From the NCBI GenBank assembly GCA_018651085.1, contig JABIEQ010000014.1, forward strand, positions 15,178 to 79,177: a stretch of DNA of 64,000 nucleotides, written 5' to 3'. Position numbers and translations under genes: made by a program. Below are positions 33,795-36,358 of this stretch, piece by piece (within the stretch, counting starts at the first letter, position 1; the number at the start of each line of letters is the position of its first letter). Below the pieces are notes generated by a model. That model saw only the letters and a program-made list of their open reading frames with translations, searched no databases and was not told where the DNA came from. Source of the stretch: Candidatus Magasanikiibacteriota bacterium (lineage in GTDB: Bacteria > Patescibacteriota > Patescibacteriia > Magasanikbacterales > UBA922).

Positions 33795-34703
33795 ATGCTT
33801 GGATTTTTACGCATCATTAAATTTACTTTTCAGAACATTGGACGAAATGTCGGTCTTTCAGTTATGACAGTACTTATTTTAGTACTGATGCTTTTGTCTG
33901 TGAATAGTCTTATTACTGTTCGTGCACTAACACAAGAAGCATCAGACGCAGTAAAAGAACAAATTGATATTAGTGTATATTTTGATCAAGAAGTAAAAGA
34001 TGAAGAAGTAGCAGAGGTAGAAGCATATGTAAATTCTTTTGAAGAAGTCAAAGAAGTCACACTCTTCTCTCGCGACGAAGTACTTACAGAATTCACAGAT
34101 AAACATAAAGATAACCAAGATATTATTTCTTCCATTGAAGAATTAGGAGAAAATCCATTTGGCCCAAGAATGACTATCAAAACCCATGAGACAGAAGATT
34201 ACGCAACGATAACAGAAGCGCTTAGTGTGCCAGAATACGATCAAGTCATTGAAGCTAAAACATTCGCTGATACAGAAAAGACTATTCAAAAAATTCAACT
34301 TATCACTTCTCAAGTAGAACGATTTAGTGCACTTCTAAGTGGTCTCTTTGGTGCCATTGCATTTATTGTTATATTTAACACCATCCGTATTGCTATTTAT
34401 ACACAACGCACAGAAATAAGTATTAAAAAGCTGGTAGGAGCAACAGATTGGTTTGTAAAAGGCCCATATATGCTCTCATCGCTCTTTTTTTCACTCTTGA
34501 GCGTCATTATAAGTTTTGCCCTTACACTCCTTGCTATACGCTTTTTAGACCCATATATAATGAGTATATTTAATGATCCACACTTCTTGACAAACTACTA
34601 CTTTTCCCATATACTAGTGCTCGCTGGGATTGAGCTCGGTGCAGTACTTATCCTCACGATTCTTTCGAGTTCTCTAGCAATGCGAAAATACCTTCGGGTA
34701 TAA
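33795..34703 (+). CDS. ftsX: cell division permease-like protein FtsX
   Basis: FtsX topology: a TM helix, a large periplasmic domain and three C-terminal TM helices. Immediately downstream of ftsE. Confidence 0.8.
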   Translation: MLGFLRIIKFTFQNIGRNVGLSVMTVLILVLMLLSVNSLITVRALTQEASDAVKEQIDISVYFDQEVKDEEVAEVEAYVNSFEEVKEVTLFSRDEVLTEFTDKHKDNQDIISSIEELGENPFGPRMTIKTHETEDYATITEALSVPEYDQVIEAKTFADTEKTIQKIQLITSQVERFSALLSGLFGAIAFIVIFNTIRIAIYTQRTEISIKKLVGATDWFVKGPYMLSSLFFSLLSVIISFALTLLAIRFLDPYIMSIFNDPHFLTNYYFSHILVLAGIELGAVLILTILSSSLAMRKYLRV

Positions 34704-34708
34704 ATTAT

Positions 34709-34779
34709 TCGGGGATCGTCTAATGGTAGGACACCAGGTTTTGGTCCTGGGTATCGGGGTTCGAATCCCTGTCCCCGAG
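34709..34779 (+). tRNA. tRNA-Gln (anticodon UUG)
   Basis: Acceptor TCGGGGA/TCCCCGA, anticodon stem CCAGG/CCTGG with loop TTTTGGT, T-arm CGGGGTTCGAATCCCTG, discriminator G. No CCA. Confidence 0.8.
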
Positions 34780-34809
34780 CAGGCGTTTACGCCTTAACAA
34801 CATAGATAT

Positions 34810-35204
34810 TCGGCGGTAGCTCAGTGGTAGAGCAGTTGGCTGTAAAAATACTTGTATGGATGTATCCATATGAACGACTAGCAGCTCTTTGTAGGAATAC
34901 AAAGATGAATAACAAGGTGAATTGCTGGAAACCCTAACAGGAGGAGCTGAGGGTAATCAGCAGCCAAGTCTGTTTTTTCCGTATCGTTTAGTATACATTC
35001 GTGTACTGACATCGGTTACAGAAAGGTTCAGAGACTATCCCTTTTGGGAGTACTGCATAACAGTTGTTATGTGGGAAGCGCCTTGCACCCCACCGTCTTA
35101 GCATGACTAAGTATTACGAGGGTGATGATATAGTCCACACTTTAGTGAAAAACTAGAGATAATGTGTAACCAATTGGTCGCCAGTTCGAATCTGGCCCGC
35201 CGAG
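34810..35204 (+). tRNA. tRNA (most likely Asn-GUU, alternatively Thr-UGU) interrupted in the anticodon loop by a group I intron
   Basis: The 5' half TCGGCGG-TA-GCTCAGTGGTAGAGC-A-GTTGG-CTGT is followed by a ~323-nt insertion, then TAA-CCAAT-TGGTC-GCCAGTTCGAATCTGGC-CCGCCGA-G. The acceptor and T arms pair perfectly. The reconstituted loop CUGUUAA equals the canonical tRNA-Asn loop. Confidence 0.8.
34844..35166 (+). other. group I self-splicing intron (no ORF) within the tRNA anticodon loop
   Basis: Canonical R element GTTCAGAGACTA (35028-35039) and S element GATATAGTCC (35127-35136) forming P7. The 5' exon ends in U. The intron ends in G. A candidate internal guide sequence GCAGCU (about 34881-34886) pairs with the exon end GGCUGU to form P1. 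The exact splice boundaries are inferred. Confidence 0.75.
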
Positions 35205-35314
35205 CAACGATGTTAGAACCATTAAAATCCGTTATATTTAGCGGATTTTTTGGAAAGTGAAATAATGTAGTATATCTAGACAAATAGGCTTTTTTTTGTT
35301 AGGATCAAGTATCT

Positions 35315-36358
35315 ATGTATATAAATCGAGAACAATCTATTTTGAAGTTTTTTCCAGGTATTAAGCGGTTTCGTTTTGATCAAATAAACAAAGCCTTTTT
35401 TGATGGTACACGTTCATCTTGGAATGATGTAACAACACTTCCCAAAACTATGAAGTCTACTCTTGATAAGCAAATTTCTTGGTTGTCTTTTGAAAATAAA
35501 AAAGTATACGTGAGTAAAAAACAAGACACATACAAGGGAATATTTAAAACACAAGATGGTCAATTTTTTGAATCTGTATTAATGGCAAATAGAAAAGGAC
35601 AATGGACCATTTGTGTGTCTTCCCAAATAGGCTGTGCCATGCGTTGTACTTTTTGTGCTACTGGAACTATGGGATTGAAAAGGAATTTGCATAGTGATGA
35701 AATTATTGATCAATATAGATTTTGGCAACAGTTTTTAGTTGAACGACCAAAGCTTCCACAACGGATTTCAAACATTGTATTTATGGGCATGGGTGAGCCT
35801 CTTGCCAATTATGATAATGTGAAAAATTCTATTAATACTTTGTTGAAATATACAGATTTGGGCCCAACAAAAATCATGCTATCAACAGTTGGTATTTTGC
35901 CGCAAATGCAAAAGTTGTTAACAGATCCAGATTGGCCTAAGGTACGGATTGCCATTTCACTGCATAGTGCTAATCAAGAGAAGCGTAAAGAAATTGTACC
36001 AACAACAGTTCCGGATTTTCTTAAAAAATTGGCAGTTTGGTCACATGAATATCAACGACTCTTGGGAAATAGAAATCATAAGCTCACTTTTGAATATACA
36101 CTTATTTCTCATGTAAATGACACGCCTGAACTTGCCCAAAAGTTGGCCAAATATATTGTAAAAACAGCTGTGAGTAAAATTAATGTCATCCCTTACAATC
36201 CTGTTAAAGGAAAAATATTCAATCGGGCAGAGCAAGAGAGGGTTGATGCATTTAAAAATATTCTTCGGGATCATAATATTAATGTAACAGAGCGAACCAC
36301 AATGGGAGCTGATATTGATGCTGCCTGTGGGCAATTGGCTATTGACGCTACAATATAG
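35315..36358 (+). CDS. rlmN: 23S rRNA (adenine2503-C2)/tRNA methyltransferase, radical SAM
   Basis: Radical-SAM CxxxCxxC (GCAMRCTFCATG), GMGEPLAN and a C-terminal Cys. 347 aa. Confidence 0.85.
   Translation: MYINREQSILKFFPGIKRFRFDQINKAFFDGTRSSWNDVTTLPKTMKSTLDKQISWLSFENKKVYVSKKQDTYKGIFKTQDGQFFESVLMANRKGQWTICVSSQIGCAMRCTFCATGTMGLKRNLHSDEIIDQYRFWQQFLVERPKLPQRISNIVFMGMGEPLANYDNVKNSINTLLKYTDLGPTKIMLSTVGILPQMQKLLTDPDWPKVRIAISLHSANQEKRKEIVPTTVPDFLKKLAVWSHEYQRLLGNRNHKLTFEYTLISHVNDTPELAQKLAKYIVKTAVSKINVIPYNPVKGKIFNRAEQERVDAFKNILRDHNINVTERTTMGADIDAACGQLAIDATI

Follow-up and report, generated by a model that had tools for sequence, protein, structure and literature searches.

Among Patescibacteria, the predominant site of tRNA introns is tRNA-Asn(GUU), between positions 35 and 36 (PMC13011429; preprint 10.1101/2025.07.03.662931). 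According to PMC13011429, this class was named 'Asn.4Ug' in the tFind preprint of Williams 2020 (10.1101/2020.01.27.920355). The tRNA-Asn intron of the Saccharimonadia genome GCA_016700035.1 was spliced in vitro and the sequenced product corresponds to the 35/36 junction (PMC13011429, mSystems 2026), and in four cases tRNA-Asn 35/36 introns of Patescibacteria bear an HNH endonuclease (PMC13011429). The classical bacterial tRNA introns (cyanobacteria, Azoarcus, Agrobacterium) are located in tRNA-Leu(UAA) at 34/35, in tRNA-fMet at 33/34 and in tRNA-Ile(CAU) and tRNA-Arg(CCU) at 36/37. Phage introns of subgroup IA (T4 td/nrdB type) split protein-coding genes in phage genomes.

The window analysed here, a stretch of 64 kb, very probably contains a tRNA-Asn(GUU) gene that is split at 35/36 by a 323-nt group I intron of subgroup IA (Table 1); the genome is probably that of a Magasanikbacteria-like member of the Patescibacteria. 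The split gene has in common with the Patescibacteria tRNA-Asn 35/36 class the tRNA (U1-A72, G73, anticodon GUU), the insertion site, the P1 helix (GGCUGU with GCAGCY), the terminal ...GUG/UAA, the IA-type core with P7.1 and P7.2, probably the phylum, and the way in which standard tools tend to overlook it or to call it Thr(UGU). The initial annotation had considered Asn an unusual host; this view is out of date, 35/36 of tRNA-Asn being the predominant site in the phylum (PMC13011429).

Several differences were nevertheless observed. The assayed intron of GCA_016700035.1 is 234 nt long with a P1 loop (L1) of 5 nt, whereas L1 measures 37 nt here and contains a hairpin, P6a carries a 46-nt extension, and overall identity between the two introns is only about 43%. 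The lineage is probably Magasanikbacteria-like instead of Saccharimonadia. The published survey covers complete genomes only, whereas the present locus belongs to a draft MAG (GCA_018647845.1) that is absent from the listed part of its table (PMC13011429). The HNH-bearing introns have the same ribozyme core and site, but they carry their ORF in the P1 loop, at the place of the 37-nt insert of the present intron, which has no endonuclease ORF. The classical tRNA introns are likewise self-splicing group I ribozymes in a bacterial anticodon loop, with a P1 U.G wobble and a terminal G, but they are of subgroup IC3, lack P7.1 and P7.2 and occupy other tRNAs and loop positions. Phage IA introns have core elements of the same IA type, and segments of P3-P6 or P7-P8 match introns of phages such as Shewanella phage 1/4, the Alteromonas AD45 phages and the Lak phages with 71-80% identity, but the gene split here is a chromosomal tRNA gene. 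Introns of this kind were already catalogued in 2020 and their splicing was demonstrated in 2025-26; the copy described here is an ordinary further example. The class had been described from complete genomes, and this copy contributes a draft-genome, Magasanikbacteria-like case; it opens no new biological question.

Detection of the split gene

The initial annotation had proposed that a group I intron splits a tRNA anticodon loop, with tRNA arms flanking an insert of ~323 nt that contains the P7 halves, follows an exon U and ends in G; as checks, it had named the Rfam Intron_gpI model, an intron-aware tRNA search and the folding of P1-P9. All of this was borne out. The insert is located at 34844-35166, between U35 and U36, and G35166 is its last base. 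Rfam RF00028 (Intron_gpI) recovered it with 68 bits (gathering score 50, E 4e-15), the match spanning positions 1-253 of the 253 of the model without truncation. The core motifs GTTCAGAGACTA and GATATAGTCC are found at 35026-35037 and 35129-35138, respectively. ARAGORN -i reported tRNA-Asn(GUU) with i(35,323), i.e. an intron between positions 35 and 36, and a perfect cloverleaf from the two exons; the ligated exons were also called tRNA-Asn by ARAGORN. The CCA end is not encoded, the bases after 35204 being CAA.

Neither default ARAGORN nor the Rfam tRNA model detected the split gene. Default tRNA finders miss it and the genome therefore appears to be devoid of tRNA-Asn; intron-aware tools often miscall such split genes as tRNA-Thr(UGU). 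Annotation is the practical point, as tRNA counts enter MAG quality scores.

Table 1. Coordinates of the split tRNA-Asn gene, its intron and neighbouring elements (positions of the window).
Feature	Coordinates	Strand	Description and evidence
Promoter-like site TTGACA-17-TATACT	34587..34615	+	11/12 consensus match, within ftsX 3' end, upstream of tRNA-Gln; candidate
tRNA-Gln(UUG), uninterrupted	34709..34780	+	ARAGORN; Rfam tRNA 59.8 bits
tRNA-Asn 5' exon	34810..34843	+	Positions 1-35 (U1 ... C32 U33 G34 U35), final U35 is the U.G wobble partner in P1; TCGGCGG/TA/GCTC-AGTGGTA-GAGC/A/GTTGG/CTGT
Group I intron, subgroup IA-like, 323 nt	34844..35166	+	Rfam RF00028, ARAGORN -i, covariation; after exon U35, terminal omega-G at 35166
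P1	34838..34886	+	Exon GGCUGU (34838-34843) with guide sequence GCAGCU (34881-34886), U.G at splice site
P2 hairpin CUUUGUA-GGAA-UACAAAG	34887..34904	+	Compensatory changes in 6/7 pairs
P3 5' strand CAAGGUG	34913..34919	+	Partner 35079-35085; 98% of cells paired, 4 compensatory pairs
P4 (UGCUG/CAGCA) around P5 (CCCU/AGGG)	34923..34962	+	J4/5 GAAA, J5/4 UAAU; Rfam, fold, covariation
P6 (GC/GU) and P6a (UCUG/CAGA)	34963..35027	+	46-nt terminal extension; P6a 4/4 pairs compensatory
P7 5' strand GACUA	35033..35037	+	Inside conserved GGUUCAGAGACUA; partner 35131-35135; guanosine-binding helix
P7.1 (UCCC-UUUU-GGGA)	35038..35049	+	Between P7 and P3'; 97% paired, 4/4 compensatory
P7.2 (CUGCAUAAC-AGUU-GUUAUGUGG)	35053..35074	+	Between P7 and P3'; 84% paired, 8/8 compensatory
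P3 3' strand CGCCUUG	35079..35085	+	Covariation with P3 5' strand
P8 (CACCC...GGGUG; inner CGU/ACG and CUUAG/CUAAG stem)	35086..35124	+	Outer helix 90% paired, 4 compensatory pairs
P7 3' strand UAGUC	35131..35135	+	Inside GAUAUAGUCC
P9 hairpin CUUUAGU-GAAAA-ACUAGAG	35140..35158	+	Rfam, fold; then tail AUAAUGUG ending in omega-G
tRNA-Asn 3' exon	35167..35204	+	U36 A37 A38, 3' anticodon stem CCAAU, variable loop, T arm, acceptor strand CCGCCGA, discriminator G73; TAA/CCAAT/TGGTC/GCCAG-TTCGAAT-CTGGC/CCGCCGA/G
AT-rich hairpin AAAAUCCG...CGGAUUUUUU, then U run	35222..35252	+	Spotted by eye, then folded; probable intrinsic terminator

Fold and covariation of the intron core

A complete P1-P9 fold including P7.1 and P7.2 could be drawn for the intron, and an unconstrained MFE fold recovered most of P1 as well as P2, P3, P4, P5, P6a, P7.1, P7.2, P8 and P9. 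Subgroup IA is marked by the hairpins P7.1 and P7.2, which are inserted here between P7 and the 3' strand of P3. The proposed assignment, here worded as IA-like, is based on this hallmark and not on subgroup covariance models, which served for classification in PMC13011429.

A genome scan yielded 113 homologous intron and tRNA loci, mostly from Patescibacteria, of which 104 are recognisably tRNA-Asn. Covariation was measured on a MAFFT alignment of 57 sequences. In this alignment 83.5% of cells are paired, compared to 71.4% in shuffles, and none of 500 shuffles reached the observed value; sliding the partners as a control lowered pairing to 37-47%. Compensatory changes were found in P2, P3, P5, P6a, P7.1, P7.2 and P8, while no variation was seen in P4, P6, P7 or the CUGU/GCAG pairs of P1. 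This covariation supports a group I core made of the P4-P6 and P3-P8 domains, with a P3/P7 pseudoknot. All 59 invariant columns are common to the present intron, which is thereby a member of the family. As the P7 motifs were required by the pattern with which the family was gathered, their invariance, including that of all five P7 pairs, is partly by construction; it is nevertheless also seen in two published sequences that were not selected in this way. The family count for P9 (47% paired) is uninformative, as MAFFT misaligns this helix.

The P1 pairing predicted in the initial annotation is complementary, has U.G at the splice site and involves a guide that begins 37 nt into the intron. L1 (34844-34880) holds a small hairpin. 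The CUGU/GCAG pairs of P1 are invariant in the 57 sequences, and U.G was found in 44/44 cells with letters; the 13 gap cells at U35 arise where L1 is short and MAFFT misplaces this base. No covariation of the guide with tRNA positions 29-31 was found in the family, GCAGCY being kept whatever base 31 is. Since the guide and the P1 extension (positions 30-31) do not vary together, support for P1 comes from conservation and from the position of the U.G pair, not from compensation. P10 is weak and was not used as evidence: here the 3' exon could form no more than about 2 bp with the bases that precede the guide, and this pairing is not conserved across the family.

A rival reading is that the intron has decayed into a relic that no longer splices, within a tRNA pseudogene, and that an intact tRNA-Asn elsewhere in the genome does the work. 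The lineage-specific inserts (37 nt in L1 and 46 nt in L6a) and the lack of a homing endonuclease ORF would agree with decay, and a second, intron-less tRNA-Asn could lie beyond the 64 kb of genome that were inspected. We consider this reading very unlikely, since every core helix and all 59 family-invariant positions are intact, the exons give a perfect cloverleaf, the Rfam score is far over the gathering score and the same sequence occurs in two independent assemblies. Moreover, an intron of differing length is retained in three FtsE/FtsX-linked relatives (L060, L062 and L079), in a tRNA-Asn with the same anticodon arm.

The split gene was also compared with the assayed case. The GCA_016700035.1 intron, as given in Table S3 of PMC13011429, has the same anticodon arm, the junctions GTTGGCTGT/...GTG/TAACCAATTGG and the P1 GGCUGU/GCAGCC, and the present intron aligns with the two sequences taken from that table through P1, P2 and P3-P9. 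Because this homologue, whose junctions and P1 core are identical, was spliced in vitro, we infer that the present copy is self-splicing.

Identity of the host tRNA

As the initial annotation had pointed out, a second register exists in this copy. With the intron at 34842-35164, between positions 33 and 34, the host would be a tRNA-Thr(UGU) with the loop CUUGUAA. This register likewise has U before the intron and G at its end, so that the U(-1)/G(omega) rule agrees with both. It was chosen by ARAGORN for about half of the homologues, and published tools also make the Thr(UGU) call (PMC13011429).

The Thr reading is nevertheless extremely improbable. Among the 98 loci that fit CUGU/intron/UAA, the intron ends in omega-G in 98/98 in the Asn register but in only 70/98 in the Thr register, 28 homologues being without a terminal G. 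In the conserved P1, U33 pairs with A and the U.G wobble sits at U35. U1-A72 and G73 were each present in 97/97 family members, and both were found in all three tRNA-Gln genes of the fetched loci. They are the usual signature of bacterial tRNA-Asn and tRNA-Gln, for example in E. coli, whereas bacterial tRNA-Thr usually begins with G1-C72. The U1-A72 start, which the initial annotation had regarded as atypical, is hence normal; being invariant in the family, it is evidence for the Asn identity rather than an oddity.

Two further comparisons were made at the level of the tRNA itself. At one locus (L057) an intron-less tRNA-Asn copy adjoins the intron-containing one; its anticodon loop reads CUGUUAA and its junction, CCTGT.TAAGCG, fits the 35/36 register only. 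The tRNA body also matches annotated tRNA-Asn genes. No uninterrupted tRNA-Thr was present among the 8 uninterrupted tRNAs identified with ARAGORN in the fetched Patescibacteria loci, and annotated phage tRNAs were compared instead. Even when queried in the Thr register, the sequence still matched mainly annotated phage tRNA-Asn (17 of the 22 tRNA-annotated rows, among the matches listed). Finally, the sequenced spliced product of the homologue with identical junctions corresponds to 35/36 (PMC13011429). Together, the omega-G counts, U1-A72 and G73, the wobble at U35, the intron-less copy and the identical junctions of the homologue resolve the ambiguity to Asn. A splice site after U35 that would give the loop CUGUUAA, as favoured from the start, is thus supported as the register, in agreement with the covariation and with ARAGORN -i.

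Gene context, proposed splicing pathway and mobility

The split gene lies 29 nt downstream of an uninterrupted tRNA-Gln, with which it is probably co-transcribed, and the genes flanking the pair are ordinary cellular genes. The order FtsE-FtsX-tRNA-Gln-tRNA-Asn(intron) is conserved in L060, L062 and L079, all of which carry FtsE/FtsX, the tRNA-Gln and the split tRNA-Asn; protein identity to the three is 72-78% for FtsE and 44-59% for FtsX, and 59-75% (FtsE/FtsX) to L060 alone, with L062 similar. L060 and L062 are MAGs named Magasanikbacteria. This gene order and these identities point to a probable host among the Patescibacteria, with which the low GC content of about 36% agrees. The candidate promoter of the tRNA-Gln/tRNA-Asn transcript, which lies inside ftsX near its 3' end, is no more than a match to the consensus, and a consensus scan found promoter-like sites across the region in a number not above shuffled expectation. 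Downstream, segment 35219-35262 folds with -15.4 kcal/mol (RNAfold), and the hairpin that it contains probably ends this transcript as an intrinsic terminator. A consensus scan of the region called no terminator near the split gene; this hairpin was missed because its stem has too few G-C pairs.

The split gene has exactly the same sequence in the NCBI MAG contig as in an ENA assembly (ERZ4200974) made independently from another sample. An assembly or binning artefact, in which a phage-type group I intron was chimerically joined to tRNA halves, could be imagined from the local similarity of the core to phage-genome introns (71-80%) and from the metagenomic origin of the genome, but its probability is practically nil, given that the tRNA-Gln/tRNA-Asn region is identical in the NCBI contig (112 kb) and the ENA contig (74 kb), that the arrangement recurs in 104 of the 113 homologous loci and that the flanks are cellular.

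For the tRNA-Asn gene split at 35/36, the following pathway can be proposed. The gene would be transcribed, probably jointly with the upstream tRNA-Gln, and the intron would adopt its P1-P9 core. Exon GGCUGU would pair with the guide GCAGCU, the U.G wobble at U35 marking the 5' splice site, and a free guanosine bound in P7 would attack after U35. G35166 would then take the same P7 site and the 3'-OH of U35 would attack before U36, so that the ligated exons would have the anticodon loop CUGUUAA and the junction ...GGCUGU-UAACCAAU... Ordinary end-processing and CCA addition would follow.

Conditional splicing was raised by Nakagawa et al. as speculation only (PMC13011429). That the 37-nt L1 hairpin and the 46-nt P6a extension make splicing conditional here, and so turn the intron into an RNA-level valve on the supply of tRNA-Asn, appears unlikely. 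If true, the valve would act in a genome from which most protein regulators have been lost and the inserts would not be neutral scars.

No homing endonuclease ORF was found within the intron, the ORF list containing only ORFs of at most 59 aa that cross the structured core. Because it has no endonuclease gene, the intron is probably immobile and vertically inherited; presumably, either it cannot move or its endonuclease has been lost. An ORF of at least 60 codons, located in L1, is present in the intron of 37/98 family members; three of these ORFs were scanned against Pfam and all match HNH. P1-loop ORFs in many relatives, HNH in the three tested, fit past homing. The family as a whole, with 104 tRNA-Asn among its 113 loci, supports the published view that 35/36 of tRNA-Asn is the characteristic tRNA intron site of Patescibacteria. 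On the present copy, the 37-nt L1 hairpin occupies the site where relatives carry the endonuclease gene.

A split tRNA gene with a group I fold

Reading of the sequence over 34500–35500 revealed two tRNA halves separated by 323 nt. The intervening sequence contains the core motifs GTTCAGAGACTA (35026–35037) and GATATAGTCC (35129–35138) as well as GCAGCT (34881–34886), and it matches the full-length Rfam Intron_gpI model over 34870–35158 with 68 bits and an E value of 4e-15, the gathering score being 50. When introns were allowed, ARAGORN predicted a tRNA-Asn(gtt) interrupted after position 35 by a 323-nt intron. The split gene (34810–35204) was found neither by default ARAGORN nor by the Rfam tRNA model; hence, standard annotation would show no tRNA-Asn here. 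The whole tRNA-Gln/tRNA-Asn region of the NCBI MAG contig (GCA_018647845.1, JABGSG010000024.1, 112 kb) recurs without any difference in an ENA assembly made independently from a different sample, indicating that the split gene is no assembly artefact. These data confirm that it is real: the initial annotation had described tRNA halves flanking an insert of about 323 nt with group I P7 halves, and both motifs that it quoted are in place.

A complete P1–P9 fold was drawn on the window sequence and its coordinates were checked. An unconstrained MFE fold finds unaided most of P1 and P2, P3, P4, P5, P6a, P7.1, P7.2, P8 and P9. P7 is followed, before P3', by helices P7.1 and P7.2, an arrangement that typifies subgroup IA, the usual subgroup of phage introns. 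The intron core (34870–35158) is locally similar to introns in phage genomes, with segments 71–80% identical to Shewanella phage 1/4, Alteromonas AD45 phages, Vibrio phages and Lak megaphages; the matching sequences are presumably the IA introns of those phages. In one phage record the match falls under an "HNH endonuclease" annotation. The window intron contains no endonuclease-sized ORF.

Features of the split tRNA-Asn gene and its surroundings (window coordinates)
Feature	Position	Strand	Description
Upstream genes			Mur ligase, SurA-like PPIase, FtsE/FtsX
ORF, 276 aa	31057–31887	-	between SurA-like gene and ftsE
ORF, 262 aa	32165–32953	-	between SurA-like gene and ftsE
Promoter-like site	34587–34615		TTGACA-17-TATACT, 11/12 consensus match, within ftsX end
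tRNA 5' half	34810–34843		acceptor TCGGCGG, D arm GCTC-AGTGGTA-GAGC, anticodon stem GTTGG, then CTGT (sequence reading)
P1			exon GGCUGU with GCAGCU; U35.G wobble; 37-nt L1 holding small hairpin
P2	34887–34904
P3			CAAGGUG with CGCCUUG
P4			UGCUG with CAGCA
P5			CCCU with AGGG
P6 and P6a			46-nt extension
P7			GACUA with UAGUC
P7.1	35038–35049
P7.2	35053–35074
P8	35086–35124
P9	35140–35158
Intron tail			AUAAUGUG, last base G35166
tRNA 3' half	35167–35204		TAA, CCAAT, TGGTC, T arm GCCAG-TTCGAAT-CTGGC, acceptor CCGCCGA, discriminator G (sequence reading)
AT-rich hairpin and U run	about 35222–35252		3' of tRNA-Asn
Downstream genes			radical-SAM protein, NUDIX hydrolase, inositol monophosphatase, glycogen synthase, phosphorylase

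Homologous loci and the splice register

One genome per species was scanned with the pattern TTCARAGACTA...GATATAGTC...GTTCRAWTC, which leaves the tRNA type unspecified. The scan yielded 113 loci, the majority from Patescibacteria MAGs (Saccharibacteria, Paceibacterota/Parcubacteria, Kaiser-, Magasanik-, Uhr-, Falkow-, Moran- and Peregrinibacteria). The arrangement CUGU/intron/UAA with a complementary anticodon stem fits 97 of them; five more fit except for an anticodon-stem mismatch, two of the same type are N-masked, two are Colwellia tRNA(CAU) genes, one is a partial intron and six are truncated by the locus end. ARAGORN calls in the family are divided between Asn(GUU) with the intron at 35/36 and Thr(UGU) at 33/34, which is the two-base ambiguity of the initial annotation.

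All 98 loci (97 homologues and the window) have G as the last intron base (omega-G) in the Asn register, versus only 70 of 98 in the Thr register. U1-A72 and G73 are invariant (97/97 each). Both are features of bacterial tRNA-Asn, and E. coli tRNA-Asn and tRNA-Gln both have them; the acceptor start of the window, mistakenly called atypical before, is thus typical and constitutes evidence for Asn. Exon CUGU pairs with a conserved GCAGCY located about 38 nt upstream of an AAUUGC motif, which places U35 in a U.G wobble and U33 opposite A. When annotated phage genomes were queried with the Thr-register sequence, an adversarial choice, 17 of the 22 tRNA-annotated rows among the matches listed were tRNA-Asn. 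One locus (L057) pairs an intron-containing tRNA-Asn with an intron-less copy of identical exon sequence about 130 nt further downstream; the junction of the latter, CCTGT.TAAGCG, is obtainable only from the 35/36 register. The tRNA-Thr(UGU) 33/34 reading is very unlikely in view of the terminal G, the U1-A72 and G73 features, the U33-A pairing, the phage tRNA matches and this junction. Finally, the tRNA-Asn of GCA_016700035.1 (Nakagawa et al. Table S3) has the anticodon arm and junctions of the window, GTTGGCTGT/...GTG/TAACCAATTGG; its sequenced spliced product established excision at 35/36, and a terminal G to C mutation prevented mature tRNA formation (PMC13011429). A tRNA-Asn(GUU) host gene spliced after U35, the assignment first favoured, is supported by these data. 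By homology, the window intron very probably undergoes guanosine-initiated self-splicing, in which the U35.G wobble of P1 and the terminal G35166 would direct a reaction restoring the GUU anticodon.

In L057 (3192–3777, Saccharibacteria MAG contig), the first copy is N-masked at its 3' end and a short fragment like the 5' exon lies upstream; the pair could be a true tandem duplication or strain variants, differing in the presence of the intron, that were collapsed. The gammaproteobacterial Colwellia genes (L046, L083) are interrupted after U36 (CUCAU/...G/AA) by an intron that shares the IA-type core motifs, in line with the published remark that the tRNA-Asn introns of Patescibacteria stand close to Pseudomonadota tRNA-Ile2/Leu introns. 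In a Peribacteraceae contig (L027, about 1700–2320), only the intron 3' half, from P6/P7 on, is joined to an Asn-type 3' exon; the preceding sequence looks coding or unrelated, and a 5' exon is lacking within 1.3 kb. This locus could represent a gene that is split or holds a large insertion, or else a copy in decay.

Covariation and P1-loop ORFs

The window locus, two published sequences and 54 loci with introns of at most 345 nt (57 sequences) were aligned with MAFFT and scored on the window's own structure, that is, one derived from an aligned sequence. Paired cells amounted to 83.5%, versus 71.4% in shuffles (0/500 reached the observed value) and 37–47% when partners were slid by 1–3 columns. 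Both-side changes occurred at 48 pairs, and compensatory changes were observed in P2 (6/7 pairs), P3 (4/7, 98% paired), P6a (4/4), P7.1 (4/4, 97% paired), P7.2 (8/8), P8 (4/5) and also P5. No variation was seen in P4, P6, P7 or the CUGU/GCAG portion of P1, the P7 motifs being imposed by the search pattern. In this alignment, where MAFFT partly misaligns P9 and U35, no covariation was seen between the P1 extension (positions 30–31) and the guide sequence, the intron GCAGCU of P1. All 59 invariant columns are common to the window, whose intron hence gives no sign of decay.

In 37 of the 98 family members (L006, L010, L017, L020, L023 and about 32 others; introns mostly 548–668 nt), the P1 loop contains an ORF of no fewer than 60 codons, in most cases 100–120 aa, and all three that were scanned match Pfam HNH, just over the curated cut-off. 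In most of these loci the ORF 3' end enters or passes the guide sequence (P1 3' strand) toward P2, which suggests that translation is coupled to ribozyme folding. The window L1 lies in the same place and measures only 37 nt, compatible with the speculation that its endonuclease was lost.

Published class, genomic setting and host lineage

From 95 complete genomes of Patescibacteria, Nakagawa et al. (mSystems 2026, PMC13011429; preprint dated July 2025) described group I introns at 35/36 of tRNA-Asn(GUU) (15 cases) and tRNA-Asp(GUC) (3 cases). These introns escape standard tools or are miscalled Thr(UGU) 33/34, belong almost throughout to subgroup IA, encode HNH endonucleases in four cases and were shown to self-splice precisely in vitro (PMC13011429). 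According to that paper, the tRNA-Asn class is already the "Asn.4Ug" of Williams (bioRxiv 2020, 10.1101/2020.01.27.920355), a study that takes the number of tRNA intron types in bacteria from 4 to 21. The window intron is the same element and lies outside the classical IC3 tRNA introns (Leu-UAA, fMet, Ile-CAU, Arg-CCU); the earlier view of Asn as an unusual insertion site is therefore out of date. Since GCA_018647845.1 is absent from the portion of the PMC13011429 tables covered here and the element itself is described there, the locus is a new example of a published class and no new kind. It is chiefly of practical use, in annotating tRNAs and in estimating how complete Patescibacteria MAGs are, as an overlooked tRNA-Asn depresses apparent genome completeness.

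The window is cellular DNA of about 36% GC. The two minus-strand ORFs upstream of ftsE are annotated as genes in public contigs; our scan gave no Pfam match for the 262-aa ORF, and neither ORF has one recorded in the genome collection. A tRNA-Gln(UUG) ends at 34780, 29 nt upstream of the split tRNA-Asn, and consensus matches to a promoter and a terminal hairpin suggest a two-tRNA transcript or operon. Window FtsE and FtsX are 72–78% and 44–59% identical to those of L060, L062 and L079 (78% and 54% for L079). Each of these loci has tRNA-Gln and a split tRNA-Asn, with introns of 403, 357 and 344 nt, respectively, 59–64% identical to that of the window. L060 and L062 are named Candidatus Magasanikiibacteriota/Magasanikbacteria, and L079 is labelled "uncultured Gammaproteobacteria". 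The protein identities, tRNA linkage and intron identity suggest that the host probably belongs to a Magasanikbacteria-like lineage of Patescibacteria, in which the intron was probably inherited vertically.

The "uncultured Gammaproteobacteria" label is also borne by L034, L068, L029, L022 and L063, which like L079 have the tRNA-Asn 35/36 intron, as does L035, labelled "Woesearchaeota archaeon". Such labels may reflect mis-binning or misnaming of MAG contigs, a point raised for a "Pacearchaeota" contig by Williams (2020; 10.1101/2020.01.27.920355).
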